Source of the DNA: a virus
Taxonomy: Duplodnaviria; Caudoviricetes
Reading direction: 5' to 3' (one strand)
Length of the DNA stretch: 58,796 bases
Virus record (IMG/VR): IMGVR_UViG_3300042890_001480
Span: 1-58,796 of that record
The notes beneath the pieces were generated by a model, which did no database searches, was not told where the DNA came from, and was given only the letters and a program-made list of their open reading frames with translations. Positions 1 through 24,538 of the stretch are shown here, in pieces; positions within the stretch are counted from its first letter, which is position 1; every line of letters begins with the position of its first letter. The position numbers were made by a program, and so were the translations under genes.

Positions 1-72
1 CTTGATACCGCCATGATTATATTCGAACAATAGTTCGTTATAGATTAAGTCTAGGTTAGACATGTTAGACAT
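1..72 (-). CDS. hypothetical protein, 5' part only (runs off window)
   Basis: ATG at 72 overlaps the upstream stop (TAATG); open MSNMSNLDLIYNELLFEYNHGGIK to the window edge. Confidence 0.55.
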   Translation of the reverse strand, partial: MSNMSNLDLIYNELLFEYNHGGIK

Positions 73-179
73 TAAGACACCTTCCAATTCTTAGCGATAC
101 AATTATCGCATATAGCAGGGATAGATGATTTAGATACCATAGCGGTATCATTACATGATATACATTTTTTATTTATCAT
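72..179 (-). CDS. 35-aa Cys4 zinc-ribbon-like peptide
   Basis: Manual translation MINKKCISCNDTAMVSKSSIPAICDNCIAKNWKVS; two CxxC; SD-like AGAAAGGA upstream; below ORF-track cutoff. Confidence 0.65.
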   Translation of the reverse strand: MINKKCISCNDTAMVSKSSIPAICDNCIAKNWKVS

Positions 180-211
180 TTTTAGTTATCCTTTCTAAGA
201 TACTTTCGTGG

Positions 212-267
212 AGAGCGGTTATTTGCTAGGCTCACCCTTTCGGGATTATTTGCTAGGCTCACGCTCT
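212..267 (-). promoter_or_regulatory. two-fold symmetric leader element (17-nt direct repeat inside a stem-loop)
   Basis: TTATTTGCTAGGCTCAC at 219-235 and 246-262; outer stem AGAGCG/CGCTCT; inner CCC-GAAA-GGG hairpin on the minus strand. Confidence 0.6.
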
Positions 268-375
268 AATTCTTTATTTAATTTGTTATACTATAATCCT
301 AACAGGGGGGACTGACATTTTGCCTATCACAAATCGGACATGTCGGACATTTTGTAAATTAGTTTCAGAAATTAG

Positions 376-391
376 GGTGATATACCTCACA
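376..391. promoter_or_regulatory. CRP/GlxR-like binding site
   Basis: GGTGA-TATACC-TCACA, 9/10 match to TGTGA-N6-TCACA, in a divergent intergenic region. Confidence 0.4.
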
Positions 392-482
392 TATGGTCGC
401 TCTATCTGGACAAATCGGACATTTTAAATATGTGTATCATACAAATTAAAATTATATTAACATTTTCATAAATCTAAATTAG

Positions 483-511
483 TAGTCAACTAGGATTATA
501 AATGTTATAAT
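483..511 (+). promoter_or_regulatory. promoter of tRNA pair
   Basis: TAGTCA-17nt-TATAAT with extended -10 TG (TGTTATAAT 503-511), just upstream of tRNA-Asn. Confidence 0.6.
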
Positions 512-519
512 AAATAAAT

Positions 520-592
520 TGGAGATTAGCTCAGCAGGCAGAGCGGGAAGCTGTTAACTTCTAGGTCCTAGGTTCGAATCCTAGATCTCCAG
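520..592 (+). tRNA. tRNA-Asn(GTT)
   Basis: Acceptor TGGAGAT/ATCTCCA, D stem GCTC/GAGC, anticodon loop CTGTTAA, T loop TTCGAAT; U1-A72 and G73 as typical for Asn; CCA not encoded. Confidence 0.93.
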
Positions 593-603
593 CTATTACA
601 TTT

Positions 604-674
604 GCGAATATTGCATAGTGGTAGTGCGTAACCTTGCCAAGGTTAATGTGAGAGTTCGATTCTCTCTATTCGCT
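604..674 (+). tRNA. tRNA-Gly(GCC)
   Basis: Acceptor GCGAATA/TATTCGC, anticodon arm TAACC-TTGCCAA-GGTTA, T arm GAGAG-TTCGATT-CTCTC, U73; CCA not encoded. Confidence 0.93.
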
Positions 675-677
675 CTC

Positions 678-707
678 TTGACCTAACAAAATCTATTATG
701 CTACAAT
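678..707 (+). promoter_or_regulatory. sigma70/sigA-type promoter
   Basis: TTGACC-18nt-TACAAT with extended -10 (TGcTACAAT); predicted +1 near 714. Confidence 0.7.
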
Positions 708-713
708 TCTAAC

Positions 714-913
714 CTTGGATAGTTTTCGGAGATAATATCAAGGGGTTAAACTCCAAGTGCGACAATGACGGAAGTGTTATTAGTCTTGGCTTATATATCC
801 AGTATAAGTTCAACCGATGAATTGCGGGTTTACTACCTTTAGACAATTTCGGGGGATCCTTAAAAGATTTAAGGGGTGTAGGGGTTGTATGCTCTAAATC
901 TGGAAGTATCCAA
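714..913 (+). ncRNA. candidate ~200-nt structured ncRNA, family unknown
   Basis: Begins at predicted +1; 715-730 pairs with 899-913 (15 bp, one bulge, 3 G-U); several internal hairpins; GC-richer than flanks; no plus-strand ORF in the track. Confidence 0.6.
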
Positions 914-977
914 TAAAAAGAAAATATAAGATATATACTTAAAAATAAAAATTCTATTAACATTTAATATCATCTAA

Positions 978-999
978 TATTCTAGTCAACTAAGATATA
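978..999 (+). repeat. 22-bp direct repeat, copy upstream of HNH gene
   Basis: TATTCTAGTCAACTAAGATATA, 21/22 identical to 1329-1350; 14-nt partial copy at 483-496. Confidence 0.8.
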
Positions 1000-1036
1000 T
1001 ATCCAGATTATAATAATTAAAAGATATACTTAGTCT

Positions 1037-1324
1037 ATGAAGTCGGATAAGACGACTGATCGAAAACATAAAGCTCATCTGATAAAGTATATTCAGGAGT
1101 TAAAATCTTCTACTCCTTGCTTAGATTGTAAAATATCCTATCCATACTATGTTATGGACTTTGACCATGTTAGAGGAACTAAGCAAGCAAATGTGGCGGA
1201 ATTGATTAATACCTTATCCAAGAAGAAAATAGATCTAGAGATAGCTAAATGTGAGATAGTATGTTCTAATTGTCATCGTATTAGAACTCATCATAGGAAA
1301 ATTAAGAAAAAGGATAAATCTTAG
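1037..1324 (+). CDS. small HNH endonuclease
   Basis: CxxC (CLDC), DFDH, CxxC+H (CSNCHRIRT) zinc-binding HNH pattern; TATACT 6 nt before ATG (leaderless). Confidence 0.85.
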   Translation: MKSDKTTDRKHKAHLIKYIQELKSSTPCLDCKISYPYYVMDFDHVRGTKQANVAELINTLSKKKIDLEIAKCEIVCSNCHRIRTHHRKIKKKDKS

Positions 1325-3193: not shown

Positions 3194-4183
3194 ATGAATA
3201 TTTCATTTTCAACACCAACTGTTAACATAAAAGGTGAAAATGGATATGGCTATGCGGGAAGAAATATAGTTCATTCATTAAATTCATTAGGACATTTTGT
3301 CCCATTTCAAGATCCTAAATCTTTAGTTCAATTAAATTTTTCACAACCAGATCTTTTTAAATTACACAGGAAACAATATCAAATTGGATATACTCCATGG
3401 GAGTCAACAGTTATTCCAAAAAGATGGCACGAGAACATAAGACATTGCGATGAGTTTTGGACAACATCGGACTGGTGTGCAAATGTATTTGATGATAATG
3501 GATTTAGCAATATCAAAGTATTCCCGCATGGGATAGATCCAATGTGGACTCCTAAAAAAAGAGAACAAAAAGAGACTTTAAAGTTTTTACACATAGGAGA
3601 ACCATCTTCAAGAAAAGGTGGGCAAATAGCAGTAGATGCATTTTTACAACTATTTGGAAATAAACCAGGATACTCTTTAACAATAAAAGCATTTAACTAT
3701 AGCACTGTTAGGGTATTTAATAATTATATAGATAAAAATATTATAGGCCTGCCCCATGAAATGTATAACAATGTGTTTTTAAATAATTCTGTATTAAATG
3801 ACGAAGAGCTTGTTAGACTTTATCATGATCATGATGTTTTAATTTATCCTAGTTATGGAGAAGGTTTTGGGTTTATCCCGCTTCAAGCTCTAGCAACAGG
3901 AATGCCTACAATATCTACATTCGATTGGGCACAATATAAAAAATATATTGGTCCGCTAAAATTAAAATCAGAATTAATAGATTCTCCCTGGGACTATATG
4001 CACGAAGGCAAAGTCTATGAGCCAGACTATCAACACTTACTTGAGCTTATGAGAGATGTAAGTTTAAATTTTAAAGCATATTCATCTTATTATTACACTC
4101 AGTCAACTAAAATTCATGAAGAATATAATTGGTTGCGGTTGACTAATAATGCGTTTGACCATATTTTTAAAAAATTCTCATAA
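3194..4183 (+). CDS. GT-B glycosyltransferase (GT4-like)
   Basis: PHGID, RKG, YPSYGEGFGFIPLQALATGMP motifs. Confidence 0.88.
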   Translation: MNISFSTPTVNIKGENGYGYAGRNIVHSLNSLGHFVPFQDPKSLVQLNFSQPDLFKLHRKQYQIGYTPWESTVIPKRWHENIRHCDEFWTTSDWCANVFDDNGFSNIKVFPHGIDPMWTPKKREQKETLKFLHIGEPSSRKGGQIAVDAFLQLFGNKPGYSLTIKAFNYSTVRVFNNYIDKNIIGLPHEMYNNVFLNNSVLNDEELVRLYHDHDVLIYPSYGEGFGFIPLQALATGMPTISTFDWAQYKKYIGPLKLKSELIDSPWDYMHEGKVYEPDYQHLLELMRDVSLNFKAYSSYYYTQSTKIHEEYNWLRLTNNAFDHIFKKFS

Positions 4184-4267: not shown

Positions 4268-6202
4268 ATGTCAACAGTTATTGAAAACCCATATGAAAAT
4301 TTTATTGCATTGTCTCGTTACGCAAGGTGGATTCCAGAAGATAATCGCAGAGAAACTTGGGGAGAAACAGTAGATCGTTATTTTACTTTTATGCTTGATC
4401 ATTTATTTAAAGAGTATTCTTATGAACCATCAAGCAAATTAATCCAGGAATTAAAAGAAGCAGTTCTTAATAGAAATGTTATGCCCTCAATGAGAGCGGT
4501 AATGACATCTGGTGCAGCATTAGAAAGAGATCATGTCGCAGGATACAACTGTTCTTTTATTCCAGTAGATTCACCAAGATCATTTGATGAAACAATGTAT
4601 ATTCTTATGTGTGGAACTGGAGTAGGATTTTCTGTAGAGTATAAGTATATTAATAAACTTCCTTCCGTTCCAGAATCTTTAGAAAAATCAACAACAGTTA
4701 TTTCTGTAGAGGATTCAAAACAGGGTTGGGCAAAAGCATATCGTGAATTACTAGCGCTACTTTGGTCTGGACAAATTCCAGCAATTGATGTAACTAAACT
4801 TAGGCCAGCAGGAGCAAGACTTAAAACTATGGGTGGAAGATCTTCTGGTCCACAACCACTTATTAATCTTTTTGATTTTACAATTAAAATATTTAAAAAC
4901 TCAGTTGGAAGAAATTTAAAGCCAATTGAATGCCACGACATTATGTGTAAAATTGGAGAAGTTGTTGTAGTTGGCGGAGTCCGTAGATCTGCAATGATTT
5001 CACTATCTAACATTAATGACATTGAAATGGCGGCAGCTAAATCAGGAAATTGGTGGGAAAATAGTCCACAGAGAGCGTTATCAAATAACTCAGTTGCTTA
5101 TTCTAGAAAACCAGAAATGGCACAATTTATCACAGAATGGAAAAATCTTTATGACTCAAAATCTGGAGAGCGTGGAATCTACAATGTTGCCGCTGCTCAA
5201 GCGCAAGCAGCTAAATATGGAAGACGGGATCCTGAAATACACTATGGAACAAACCCTTGTTCGGAAATTATTTTGCGTCCTTATCAGTTTTGTAATCTTT
5301 CAGAAGTCGTATTACGTGAAAAAGATACAGTTGAGGATGTCGAGAATAAAGTAAGACTTGCTACTATTTTAGGAACATGGCAATCAACATTAACAGACTT
5401 TAAATATCTACGTAAAATTTGGAAAGATAATACAGAAGAAGAAAGACTATTAGGGGTATCTCTAACTGGTCAATTTGGACACAAGTTCTTCTCTGGAAAA
5501 CAAGGCCTAGATAAACTAGAATCTACACTAGTATCTCTTCGTGAGCAGGCAAGAAAAACAAATAAAGAAGAGGCTAAAAAAATTGGCATACAGGAGTCTG
5601 CGGCAATTACCTGTGTAAAGCCTTCGGGAACAGTATCTCAATTAGTAGGGGTTTCTTCAGGAATGCACCCATGGCACTCTAGGTATTATATTCGTACGGT
5701 TCGTGGCTCTAAAGGAGATCCAATTTCTACATTTTTAAAAGAGGTTGGAATACCAGTAGAAGATGATGTTATGAAACCAACAGATACTTATGTATTTTCA
5801 TTTCCTATAAAAGCACCAGAAGATGCAATTGTAAGAAACGACCTAACGGCTATTGATCACCTAAACACTTGGCTAGTATATCAAAGAGCATGGTGTGAGC
5901 ATAAGCCATCAATTACAGTTTCAGTAAAAGAAGATGAGTGGATGGAAGTTGGGGCATGGGTATATAAAAACTTTGATGAAGTTTCTGGTATTTCGTTTTT
6001 GCCGTCTTCAGATCACTCATACAAACAAGCACCATATCAGGAAGTAACAAAAGAGGAATACGAAGACTTGTTATCTAAGATGCCAAGATCTATTCGTTGG
6101 GAAGATTTATCTTTTTATGAAACTGAAGATGGAACATCTACAAATGCTACGTTGGCCTGTAGTTCAGACGGCAATTGTGAGCTTGTTGATATTTCTGCTT
6201 AA
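4268..6202 (+). CDS. nrdJ: class II (adenosylcobalamin-dependent) ribonucleotide reductase
   Basis: YNC, NPCSEI, TCVKPSGTVSQL, C-terminal CSSDGNC; no nrdB adjacent. Confidence 0.9.
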   Translation: MSTVIENPYENFIALSRYARWIPEDNRRETWGETVDRYFTFMLDHLFKEYSYEPSSKLIQELKEAVLNRNVMPSMRAVMTSGAALERDHVAGYNCSFIPVDSPRSFDETMYILMCGTGVGFSVEYKYINKLPSVPESLEKSTTVISVEDSKQGWAKAYRELLALLWSGQIPAIDVTKLRPAGARLKTMGGRSSGPQPLINLFDFTIKIFKNSVGRNLKPIECHDIMCKIGEVVVVGGVRRSAMISLSNINDIEMAAAKSGNWWENSPQRALSNNSVAYSRKPEMAQFITEWKNLYDSKSGERGIYNVAAAQAQAAKYGRRDPEIHYGTNPCSEIILRPYQFCNLSEVVLREKDTVEDVENKVRLATILGTWQSTLTDFKYLRKIWKDNTEEERLLGVSLTGQFGHKFFSGKQGLDKLESTLVSLREQARKTNKEEAKKIGIQESAAITCVKPSGTVSQLVGVSSGMHPWHSRYYIRTVRGSKGDPISTFLKEVGIPVEDDVMKPTDTYVFSFPIKAPEDAIVRNDLTAIDHLNTWLVYQRAWCEHKPSITVSVKEDEWMEVGAWVYKNFDEVSGISFLPSSDHSYKQAPYQEVTKEEYEDLLSKMPRSIRWEDLSFYETEDGTSTNATLACSSDGNCELVDISA

Positions 6203-21514: not shown

Positions 21515-24500
21515 ATGGCAAGAAAAGTATTATTAGAAACTGGATATACATTTAATGCGTCAACCAGAACAATCACTATTCCAAGAATTATTCGTCGTGA
21601 TAGACTGGCACTTATCACAAACACTACCGCAAATCAGGTAATTTATAATTTTTCAGATCCAAGCCTAAGAGCAACAACGTACACAGTAACCCCTGTCGGT
21701 AGCTCTGGATCAACAACTATTGTCCTTAGCTATAATACTACAACCATGTCTAATGCAGACACACTCCAAATTATTATTGATGAATATGATGAGAAATTTA
21801 GCCCATCAGAAACATTTACAGACCCAGTAAGCAGAATGCGAATATCTCAGGGTCAATCTTTAATTGATACAGATTTTGAATACGGTCAACAGACAACAAA
21901 GTGGGAAAACCTAGCCCTTGTTAATAATAGACCGTGGTCATTTGAAGGACAAACAACTTTATCTAACGTAACTGCTATTACAATGTCAGCAGGATCAAGA
22001 ACTGTAACTGTAGCAACAGTAACTCCGCCAGCAGTCGGCACACCAGTATTTATTCGTGATACTAACTTACTCTTTGCAAATGGTAACTTCATAGTAGAAT
22101 CAGTATCATCAGGCACCAGCTTTACATACACTGCCCGTGCTGCAAACTATACATCAATAACAGCACTTTTTGATTCATCTAAAACAGTAGTTACTGCAGG
22201 CTCTCTTTATACACAAGCAGCAATTGGCGGAGCTCCAACATTTACAGTATCGGGAACAGATTTAAGGGTATCAGTAACAACAACAGTCCCACATGGATTA
22301 ATGCCAGGAAATGAAATTGCTGTAGTTGGTATAACTGGAACAAATCCTCCAAATGGTAACTTCTATGTATCTACAGTAACATCACCAACAGCATTTGTAT
22401 ATTATGCAAACTCTTCAGTTGGTAATCCAGCATCATTAACTACAACTTCGGCAATACTTTATGTAAGACCAACATCACTATTTATGCACAGACCATTTGA
22501 CGGAGGAGTACTTTTTGGATCAAATAGCGCATCTCCAAATGTTAGCTCAATTCGTCAAACACGTAGACAGTTTAGATATCAGTCTGGTAAAGGATTACAG
22601 ATTTCATCTGGAAGCTTAATGCGACCTTATTCAACTGTAGATCAACTAACATCTTCAGGAACTACAGTAACTGTTCGTACTCGTGAAGCACATAACATTC
22701 AGCCAGGAGCTCAAGTAATTGTTTCTGGAGCAGTGGAAACAGCATACAACGGAACATTTACAGTAGTATCTGCTCCAAGATTTAATACATTTACTTATAC
22801 TGCAGCAGCAACCCCATCAGCAACACCAGCATCTGGAGACCCTGTTGTTTCAGTTTCTTCTTGGTCTGGTGCAAAAACAAGACTTGGAGCATTTGATAAT
22901 CAAAACGGAGTATTTTGGGAATACGATGGCGCAGTATTGTATGCCGTACGTAGATCTTCTATTTTACAAATTGGCGGAAGAGTATCAGTAACAGCTGGAT
23001 CTAGCACTGTAACACAAACAGATGCAGAATATCCAACCTCATTTGCTAAGCAATTAAGAATTGGAGACATGATTACACTTCGTGGACAATCTTATAAAGT
23101 TATAAATATTGCTTCAGACACATCTATGACGATTAATCCATCATATCGTGGCATATCAAACGTCACATTTGGAACCGTAACAAAAATGGTTGAAACAAAA
23201 ATTGCACAATCAGCATTTAATATTGACAGACTCGACGGAACAGGACCTTCAGGATATGTATTAAACCTAGGTACAATGCAAATGTTTTATGTCGATTATT
23301 CATGGTATGGGGCAGGAACAATTCGTTGGGGAGTTAGAGGCTCTGACGGTAATATAATTTATTGCCACAGAATGTCTAACAATAACATAAACTCTGAAGC
23401 ATATATGAGATCAGGAAACCTTCCTGCTCGTTATGAGACAACCACAGACACCCCAGTTACATTTTTAACAGCTACATTAGCTCAGGCTGCAACATCAATG
23501 ACAGTTAGCAGCACAGCAGATTTTCCAAATAGCGGAGTTTTAATGGTTCGCAATGGAACAATTTCAGAAGGAGTTACTTATACTGGTAAAACAGGAACTA
23601 CATTTACTGGCTTAACTCGTGGACAAGCAGGTTCAGCAGTTGCTGGAGTTACAACAACCTGGGCTTCAGGAGCAGTATCTGGAACAGTTTCTTCAGCATC
23701 AGGTATTCAAATTGGACAACGTGTACATTCATCCACGAGTCCAAATCCAGTTCCAGACGGAACATTTGTGACAGGAATATCAGGAACAACAATTACATTA
23801 AATGAAGCAGTTACAGCTGCTAACCCAAATTTAATATTTGCCCCAATGGGAGTAACAGACTCAGCATTTACTTTTTCTGCTACAGCCCCAACTTCGGTTG
23901 AATTGGCTTACCCAACATTTTCTCCATCAATATCACACTGGGGAACAGCAGCAATTATGGACGGAAGATTTGATGATGATAAGTCACTTGTCTTTACTTT
24001 TGGAACCCCGTCAGCTACAACAGTTGGAGCAGGAGCATCAATTGCTCTTATGTCAATTCGTGTAGCACCATCTGTTGATAACGGACAGATTGGAAACTTT
24101 GGTGCTCGTGAAGTTATAAATAGAATGCAACTTAAACTAGAGTCATTTGGTTTTGTTCAAACTGGAACACCGCAACCTCTACTTATTACATTATTACTTA
24201 ATGGAGTACCATCAACATCTACTGTATGGACAAATGCAGTTGGTAACGCCGTATCTCAAAACTCATCACTTGCTCAAATTGCATCTTTTGCTGCAGGATC
24301 AACTACAATGACTGGTGGTGAAGTTGCTGGAGGTTTCTTTACTGGAGGCACAACAGATAGACTTGATTTGTCAGAAGTTCGTGATCTAGGTAACTCAATA
24401 TTAGGTGGTGGCGGACCAAACGCTAATACAAACGTTTATCCTGACGGCCCAGATACAATGACAGTTCTTGTTAGAAACTTAGGATCAGCTTCCGCAACAG

Positions 24501-24538
24501 TATTCGGACGCTTAGGCTGGACAGAAGCACAAGCGTAA
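21515..24538 (+). CDS. large virion structural protein with repeated small beta-barrel modules
   Basis: 1007 aa Thr/Ser/Gly-rich; three (Y)NG.F.V......F.Y modules; DYSWYGAG core. Confidence 0.75.
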   Translation: MARKVLLETGYTFNASTRTITIPRIIRRDRLALITNTTANQVIYNFSDPSLRATTYTVTPVGSSGSTTIVLSYNTTTMSNADTLQIIIDEYDEKFSPSETFTDPVSRMRISQGQSLIDTDFEYGQQTTKWENLALVNNRPWSFEGQTTLSNVTAITMSAGSRTVTVATVTPPAVGTPVFIRDTNLLFANGNFIVESVSSGTSFTYTARAANYTSITALFDSSKTVVTAGSLYTQAAIGGAPTFTVSGTDLRVSVTTTVPHGLMPGNEIAVVGITGTNPPNGNFYVSTVTSPTAFVYYANSSVGNPASLTTTSAILYVRPTSLFMHRPFDGGVLFGSNSASPNVSSIRQTRRQFRYQSGKGLQISSGSLMRPYSTVDQLTSSGTTVTVRTREAHNIQPGAQVIVSGAVETAYNGTFTVVSAPRFNTFTYTAAATPSATPASGDPVVSVSSWSGAKTRLGAFDNQNGVFWEYDGAVLYAVRRSSILQIGGRVSVTAGSSTVTQTDAEYPTSFAKQLRIGDMITLRGQSYKVINIASDTSMTINPSYRGISNVTFGTVTKMVETKIAQSAFNIDRLDGTGPSGYVLNLGTMQMFYVDYSWYGAGTIRWGVRGSDGNIIYCHRMSNNNINSEAYMRSGNLPARYETTTDTPVTFLTATLAQAATSMTVSSTADFPNSGVLMVRNGTISEGVTYTGKTGTTFTGLTRGQAGSAVAGVTTTWASGAVSGTVSSASGIQIGQRVHSSTSPNPVPDGTFVTGISGTTITLNEAVTAANPNLIFAPMGVTDSAFTFSATAPTSVELAYPTFSPSISHWGTAAIMDGRFDDDKSLVFTFGTPSATTVGAGASIALMSIRVAPSVDNGQIGNFGAREVINRMQLKLESFGFVQTGTPQPLLITLLLNGVPSTSTVWTNAVGNAVSQNSSLAQIASFAAGSTTMTGGEVAGGFFTGGTTDRLDLSEVRDLGNSILGGGGPNANTNVYPDGPDTMTVLVRNLGSASATVFGRLGWTEAQA

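Follow-up and report, generated by a model that had tools for sequence, protein, structure and literature searches.

Evidence for a large family of structured leader RNAs with repeated internal-loop modules in uncultured phages

Introduction

Repeated sequences in front of a gene may be read as DNA by a regulatory protein or, after transcription, as RNA. Which of the two applies, and what the repeat is for, is the question raised by positions 267-212 of the minus strand of the stretch of DNA analysed here, hereafter the window (58,796 bases, an IMG/VR virus record whose completeness was judged to be about 49%). A preliminary description of this locus, made from the letters of the window, reported two identical 17-mers with flanking stems on the minus strand, lying between an extended −10 (TGtTAGGAT, 304-296) and the first ATG (179-177), and both the sequence and its position were confirmed as given. 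The same description took the locus to be a two-fold symmetric leader RNA, perhaps bound by a dimeric partner or active in antitermination. We consider here what the relatives of the locus say about its structure, how it compares with known RNAs, and which functions are compatible with its surroundings.

The element in the window

Read on the minus strand, the stretch runs from AGAGCG through a first UGAGCCUAGCAAAUAA (261-246), a single U (245), the hairpin CCC-GAAA-GGG, a second UGAGCCUAGCAAAUAA (234-219) and a single C (218) to CGCUCU (Table 1). UGAGCCUAGCAAAUAA is a 16-mer that, together with the G preceding it, makes up a 17-mer in each of the two repeats. By comparison of the sequences, the element is a rod in which P1, loop A, P2, loop B and P3 follow one another, the loops being separated by helices of free sequence. 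Each loop consists of 5' UGAGC and 3' CAAAUAA, that is, 5 by 7 nt with 12 invariant nucleotides per module, and loop B is loop A turned round, the two copies being set head to head.

Table 1. Coordinates of the RNA element and of neighbouring features in the window
Feature	Position	Strand	Basis or remark
Whole RNA element: P1, loop A, P2, loop B, P3 hairpin	212..267	-	covariance model R1
P1 5' arm AGAGCG, pairs with 217-212	262..267	-	6 Watson-Crick pairs
Loop A 5' strand UGAGC	257..261	-	invariant, 96/96 aligned elements (among matches listed)
P2 5' strand CUAG, pairs with 229-226	253..256	-	compensatory change
Loop B 5' strand CAAAUAA + unpaired U	245..252	-	near-invariant in alignment
P3 hairpin CCC-GAAA-GGG	235..244	-	sequence; P3 covariation in relatives
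Loop B 3' strand UGAGC	230..234	-	invariant in alignment
P2 3' strand CUAG	226..229	-	compensatory change, as for P2 5' strand
Loop A 3' strand CAAAUAA + unpaired C	218..225	-	sequence
P1 3' arm CGCUCU	212..217	-	sequence; P1 covariation in relatives
Promoter-like region, two overlapping readings	290..318	-	consensus scan and relatives
Shine-Dalgarno GAAAGGA (195-189) and ATG (179-177)	177..195	-	opens 35-aa Cys-rich ORF (179-72)
Two tRNA genes	520-592, 604-674	+	Rfam 15

The 16-mer occurs twice in the window, with no further copy even when up to three mismatches are allowed; in shuffled windows 0.21 repeat matches were expected, and two or more matches occurred in 3 of 100 shuffles. The energy of the lone fold is −13.0 kcal/mol (z −0.88), a stability equalled in 34 of 200 shuffles and thus no excess over them, and the opposite strand is slightly more stable (−16.9 vs −13.0 kcal/mol). 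Since the single-sequence fold is at chance level, the case for a real feature must rest on relatives.

At 208-271 on the minus strand, covariance model R1 reaches 63.9 bits (E 9.6e-14), and together with the module scan it finds only one full element in the window. The module scan gave exactly two modules, both within the element, and 20 shuffled windows gave 0 to 2 each. A module-like string on the plus strand (CUUC-G-UGAGC ... CAAAUAA-A-GAAG, 5532-5575) falls within the ribonucleotide reductase gene. Its score with R1 is 17.2 bits (E 0.068), an inner helix is missing, and it was rejected as a probable chance match.

A family in uncultured phage contigs

The exact 16-mer is present in at least 120 IMG/VR viral contigs, most of which carry two copies 25-34 nt apart. 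A regular-expression search of 120 loci and the window gave, among the matches listed, 128 paired elements in 117 of the 121 sources; 96 of these 128 are distinct in sequence, again among the matches listed, and were aligned with MAFFT. Two of the four sources without a pair are cut by the contig end (L087, L111), and the other two have a lone copy preceding a gene (L042, L072). A covariance model search returned 122 matches across 100 loci. Typically there is one element per genome: all five near-complete genomes have one dyad each; they measure 99.6-109.8 kb, and four carry direct terminal repeats. Some other contigs hold two or three elements, certain pairs being opposite-stranded and about 1.3 kb apart.

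The family has no entry in Rfam, in the GenBank phage records or in the literature searched. With Rfam 15 at gathering thresholds, only two tRNAs reach threshold in the whole window, and in a permissive search of window 1-520 the best result over the element was TCV_H5, whose 17.1 bits stay below its threshold of 70; Rfam, to which the preliminary description had pointed, thus supplies no family match over the element. None was found among 50,697 GenBank phage records either, and the 16-mer and its 13-mer core, in DNA and RNA letters, are absent from the main full text of the papers searched. The accessible portions of the literature on phage RNA motifs describe none that recognisably matches the motif of the element. 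A phage ncRNA array, UG27 (about 150-nt units in gut prophages), was considered and set aside as different from the element, as far as the accessible text of the preprint goes.

A search of 185,579 species genomes gave 83 loci with the 16-mer, and true elements at five of them, all in MAG contigs. These are L199 (2935-2997, 3908-3971 and 6738-6800), L172 (three elements), L140, L143 and L167. They are labelled Gammaproteobacteria, Proteobacteria, Rhodobacteraceae, Bacteroidia and Bifidobacterium. Given these conflicting labels and the short or phage-sized contigs, binning of phage contigs with bacteria is the most likely explanation. In one phylum sample of 401 bacterial genomes, the letter pattern of the module occurs in 116 as scattered matches, and no paired module copies were seen in the 401 except in a known MAG contig.

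Covariation and arrangement of the modules

The helices vary while the loops remain constant. Among the 96 listed distinct elements there are 57 distinct P1 helices and 51 distinct P3 sequences. Cognate P1 stems average 4.94 bp; redistributing the 3' arms among other elements lowers the average to 2.47 bp. On the alignment of the 96 listed elements, P3 is 88.6% paired with both-side changes at all five pairs, and P2 is 100% paired. The fixed-column count for P1 is lower (71.9%) because 22 sequences, including the window, carry a one-base register shift that fixed columns do not track. Taken together, 85.6% of the cells are paired in the structure and 61.5% in shuffled controls, with covariation scores of 0.441 and 0.105, respectively (96 listed distinct elements); neither value was reached in any of 500 shuffles. 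When the partners were slid by 1-3 columns, 22.7-48.6% of the cells paired, as against 85.6%.

The P2 helix lies inside the repeat itself. In 10 of the 128 listed elements, a G9-to-C change in copy 1 is always accompanied by C6-to-G in copy 2 (copy 1 ...CCUAC..., copy 2 ...GCGUAGC...), and on the alignment this pair is GC in 88 elements, CG in 8 and unpaired in 0. Diverged copies found by the covariance model have 5-bp versions of P2, namely CUAAG/CUUAG, CUAGG/CCUAG and CUAAU/AUUAG. Because these two positions change together, the two copies pair through their CUAG tetramers; as far as compensatory change inside a repeat can prove a predicted helix, P2 is proved. In the 3' strand of loop A the only common variant is A11-to-G, seen in 31 of the 128 listed second copies and in one more that also has C6-to-G. 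The end of the outer helix at the loop takes two forms: a purine-purine juxtaposition, found at P1 of 62 of the 96 listed elements, or a single unpaired pyrimidine after CAAAUAA, found in 22 of the 96 and at both ends of the element in the window.

The number and orientation of modules also differ between relatives. Single-module hairpins occur in L069, L093 and L064, two modules stand in tandem orientation in L047, and a third module is nested outside the dyad in L029, L032, L039, L050 and L052. From these one-, tandem-two- and three-module relatives it follows that the module rather than the dyad is the unit; on the predicted folds, a portable internal loop is arranged in several ways, of which two-fold symmetry is one.

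These results revise the earlier picture in several respects. An RNA-type leader structure on the minus strand is supported by the covarying relatives, the promoter and the gene orientation, and the pattern foreseen for homologues, with covarying stems around an invariant repeat, is what P1, P3 and the constant loops display; the opposite outcome, repeats kept and stems lost, did not occur, as the listed relatives keep paired stems. The 17-mers had been drawn around one internal loop, and here the repeats hold and the single large loop does not, its centre being a helix of 4-5 bp between two loops of 5 by 7 nt. Two-fold symmetry is present in the window and is not obligatory, relatives being single, tandem or triple, which weakens the proposal of a dimeric partner. 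We conclude that positions 267-212 of the minus strand almost certainly encode a structured RNA belonging to a large family in uncultured phages of about 100 kb.

Strand, promoter and downstream genes

Base pairing does not distinguish the two strands, and the minus strand was chosen on account of the orientation of promoter and genes in every class, the purine-rich loops and junctions, and the GAAA or GCAA loops of P3 in 46 of the 96 listed distinct elements, a count made with a script of imperfect register. The GNRA loop had been proposed earlier as a pointer to this strand; it serves as such in those 46 elements and is not a family-wide feature. A test of G-U pairs, summed over stems, gave 474+365 for the aligned strand vs 497+376 for the complement, a slight lean to the complement. 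In a search for RNA runs, none was listed with the stretch, and contigs from two metatranscriptome runs overlap only the tRNA genes (527-676).

The element lies about 20-30 nt past a sigma-70-type promoter and 16 nt ahead of the Shine-Dalgarno sequence. The promoter can be read in two ways, either as the extended −10 with a weak −35, or as ATGTCA-17-TATAGT (318-290), which was listed by the consensus scan. Many relatives have a near-consensus TTGACT-17-TGnTAnnnT at the same place, and an upstream promoter is found in all classes; in many relatives a conserved A/U-rich start region (AUAACAAUUAAAUAAG) comes next, with P1 after it. Transcription is inferred to start near 283-289. The promoter core TAGGATTATA occurs on both strands 190 bp apart, at 292-301 (minus) and 491-500 (plus), as inverted repeat I19. 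At 491-519 of the plus strand, the same core and A/U-rich start region precede the two tRNA genes with no RNA element, and the A/U-rich stretch is therefore part of the promoter rather than of the RNA. The two copies look like divergent early promoters, with the RNA element on the leftward one only.

Several other repeats lie close by. Three copies of (A/C)ATGTCCGA are found within 90 bp upstream of the promoter (334-351 and 415-423, minus strand); its 9-mer at one mismatch or fewer occurs 15 times in the window vs 9.0 expected, and only the cluster is notable; it is a candidate operator, through which a phage regulator might control the early promoters. The promoter spacer contains TGTCAG (317-312), and relatives carry GTCCGACATGTCCGATTTG or ACGGCGTGTCG at the corresponding place. 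A 57-nt direct repeat, D1 (75% identity; 440-496 and 940-996), is promoter-like and stands before the tRNAs and before a 95-aa ORF (1037-1324) in which an HNH-like Cys/His spacing can be seen by eye.

Downstream, the 35-aa ORF is followed by a second ORF that starts at 72 and leaves the contig; neither matches a Pfam family. An ORF with a Shine-Dalgarno sequence and an ATG start lies within 140 nt downstream of 117 of the 128 listed elements. These first ORFs, of 31-106 aa, come from many unrelated families and, judged by their sequences, have the look of phage early genes, a small and fast-evolving run. The stretch around the Shine-Dalgarno sequence, GUAUCUUAGAAAGGAUAAC (185-203, minus), is kept almost intact in several relatives whose first genes differ (L007, L014, L029, L032, L114, L010, L049 and L101), and a weak UAUC/GAUA pairing could enclose the Shine-Dalgarno sequence of the window. 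No terminator-like site was found in window 1-1100, and in L113 the operon behind the element has no strong same-strand intrinsic terminator for about 9.4 kb, intrinsic sites being the only kind considered.

Elsewhere the window carries for the most part plus-strand virion genes, portal and protease among them, as well as ribonucleotide reductase. A 1007-aa virion structural protein (21515-24538) shares about 45% identity, across 95-98% of its length, with proteins of the T4-like cyanophages S-RIM44, Syn1 and S-RSM4; the early region, unlike this protein, resembles nothing cultured. Window 3509-3957 has nucleotide matches of 71-76% to glycosyltransferase genes of Streptomyces and Rhodococcus phages.

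In a search for a possible partner of the element among neighbouring genes, 2,795 ORFs of the loci were clustered. Of the 59 loci with at least 3 kb downstream, 41 have there, on the same strand, a member of a 70-aa family (L109:5055-5264 and 58 relatives, alignment A2). Its AlphaFold model (pLDDT 88.8) is a small all-beta protein with a short helix, whose best likeness in the PDB by Foldseek, the N-domain of EF-P/eIF5A, is weak (E 0.27); Foldseek gave no PDB match at E 0.001 or better. The family matches no Pfam or PHROG family, and the ESM Atlas gave only unnamed viral clusters. As a partner of the element it is a lead only. Conserved small families near the element are without annotation, except for a GP88 family protein in the operon (PF17338, E 1.1e-52; L112:3576-4292 and relatives), which lies about 2-3 kb behind the element and is present in 22 of the 38 loci with at least 5 kb downstream. 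GP88 and the glycosyltransferase matches hint weakly at actinobacterial hosts.

Comparison with known RNAs

The closest counterpart in position is the put RNA of phage HK022. As described in the accessible part of the source, putL and putR are cis-acting sites of about 70 nt downstream of PL and PR, one per early unit, and each RNA folds into a V-shaped pair of stem-loops with a triplex, and binds RNA polymerase at its beta' zinc-binding domain (PMC9378689). On that description, put and the element are both structured leader RNAs of about 60-70 nt behind an early phage promoter, one per early unit; put has two stem-loops, whereas the element is a single rod of nested helices with repeated internal-loop modules. 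The two have no likeness in sequence, put needs no protein factor to suppress termination, and no terminator target was seen behind the element in L113, intrinsic sites being those looked at.

In phage lambda, nut is a leader RNA made of boxA and boxB and serves as a docking site with N. The element as read here would be similar in being the leader RNA of an early operon with a docking role, the latter by analogy. In the window, P3 (CCC-GAAA-GGG) resembles a small boxB-type hairpin and the 3' arm of P1 (CGCUCU) resembles the start of boxA; however, P3 and P1 change freely in relatives, so these likenesses are coincidental. What nut conserves is boxA and the hairpin loop, whereas the element conserves the internal loops while the P1 3' arm and the P3 loop vary.

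Other comparisons concern the internal loops. RAT hairpins have two similar asymmetric internal loops, which are read by a symmetric antiterminator dimer of the LicT/SacY type, and the element is likewise a quasi-symmetric hairpin with two such loops. However, RAT overlaps a terminator, of which there is none at the element (window 1-1100), the element family also has tandem and single-module versions, and we know of no CAT-domain protein in these phages. Box C/D RNAs, the analogy drawn in the preliminary description, likewise carry two copies of an internal-loop motif in one RNA, but kinship with them is not supported: the element belongs to a bacterial virus, has neither the k-turn-forming C box (RUGAUGA) and D box (CUGA) nor a tandem G-A signature on both strands, and has no credible Rfam match, including no snoRNA-type match of any weight in the permissive search. 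Finally, UAA/GAN and loop-E-type internal loops have a GAG / UAA letter pattern beside a purine-purine junction, and the module too has GAG on one strand, UAA on the other and a purine-purine junction alongside; its loop, at 5 by 7 nt, is larger, and the likeness is one of letters alone. The motif name 'UAA GAN' gave no match in the literature search.

Proposed function

The loops stay invariant while the stems, the neighbouring genes and the number of modules (1-3) drift, which is why they are read as docking sites. Each loop would be the site for one conserved macromolecule, and we consider this reading of the loops as a docking platform probable. For what follows from docking, the arrangement of the locus offers a guide: a single site per early unit, placed behind a promoter and lacking any terminator or alternative pairing, matches the pattern seen for nut and put, and a role in processivity is therefore considered first. 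The nascent leader RNA could load or hold a factor on the transcribing RNA polymerase, or could bind the polymerase directly, and such polymerase-directed action would make a long early operon processive, as with lambda nut or HK022 put. Against this speak the absence of an obvious terminator target behind the element in L113 (intrinsic sites only) and the fact that the element shares neither sequence nor fold with put or nut. An antitermination-type mechanism acting on polymerase, drawn by analogy, is a doubtful possibility, and the reading as a whole, a structured leader RNA that docks a factor and acts in an antitermination-type manner, is put forward tentatively as the best explanation we have.

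The first alternative is an operator for translation or decay, in which a phage protein, perhaps one of the operon's conserved small early proteins, would bind the loops and shut off or autoregulate the early mRNA, much as T4 RegA and gp32 act as operator-binding translational regulators on their targets. The position would suit such a role, as the element ends 16 nt before the Shine-Dalgarno sequence in the window and 10-70 nt before the start codon in relatives, and the 70-aa beta protein, encoded downstream in 41 of 59 loci, would be a candidate. However, the Shine-Dalgarno sequence lies outside the structure, one subclass has a second promoter between the element and the gene, and the fold match of the 70-aa protein is weak and comes with no Pfam or PHROG family. 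The loops are moreover invariant though the candidate proteins diverge (30-90% identity), which a more conserved reader would fit better. We regard an operator as unlikely.

Alternatively, the leader may be a decoy or sponge, an abundant early RNA that titrates a host nuclease, a defence sensor or a global RNA binder, with the modules as bait and more modules giving more capacity. Such a role would accord with the strong consensus promoters upstream in many relatives (TTGACT-17-TATACT), with a module number that varies from 1 to 3 per hairpin, and with the subclass that has a further promoter after the element, where it need not be strictly the leader of a gene. But no terminator-like site follows the element (window 1-1100), and the search for a host RNA sharing the loop was negative, the bacterial matches being the five MAG contigs with conflicting labels and the scattered matches in 401 genomes. 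The chance that the element is a decoy is slim.

Slimmer still is the chance of a processing site or 5' stabiliser, in which a double-strand-specific host enzyme (RNase III, for example) would cut or bind the rod. Precedent exists in the early leader of T7, where hairpins with internal loops are processed by RNase III; the present rod, with about 25 bp-equivalents and internal loops in an early leader, and with a two-fold symmetry like that of a dimeric enzyme, could be seen in the same light. RNase III, however, would not need 12 invariant loop nucleotides over entirely different stems, and the roughly 20 nt of single strand before P1 would make a poor cap against end-dependent decay.

A riboswitch-like sensor with a small ligand in each loop, or with a symmetric ligand spanning the dyad, is very improbable. 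Invariant internal loops between covarying helices are typical of aptamers, and the dyad is pseudo-two-fold symmetric, but no expression platform was found (no terminator-like site in 1-1100, and a Shine-Dalgarno sequence at 195-189 that is not sequestered), the downstream genes encode unrelated small proteins and not a metabolic regulon, and module number and orientation vary. A purely DNA-level element, in which two direct-repeat sites (operator or iterons) would be bound by a DNA-binding protein with no role for RNA, is disfavoured and the least probable of these readings, for although identical 16-bp direct repeats do lie beside a promoter at one locus per genome, the copies in 10 listed elements differ from each other yet stay complementary, the spacing of 25 to 34 bp (a 9-bp spread) breaks helical phasing, and the flanking and spacer stems covary.

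Significance for phage biology

To our knowledge, no bacterial or phage regulatory RNA described so far is built from a countable module present one to three times per hairpin. We suggest, as a speculation more likely to be wrong than right, that the UGAGC/CAAAUAA loop is a new and portable RNA 'tag' by which early phage transcripts capture a universal host machine. Equally speculative are the forms that such a tag might take: a protein-free antiterminator on RNA polymerase, unrelated to put, or a multivalent trap for a host nuclease or defence signal.

For practical purposes, the element is a sequence marker of early promoters and operons in phage contigs whose early genes are unannotated. 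With 12 invariant nucleotides set between helices of free sequence, the module offers pull-downs, structural work and reporter assays an exceptionally well-defined target, and in RNA engineering it might serve as a small, portable handle. Should the loops dock a host factor or the polymerase, the element would be a second and structurally unrelated solution to the nut/put problem, one that, if true, would be used by a large group of abundant, uncultured lake phages.
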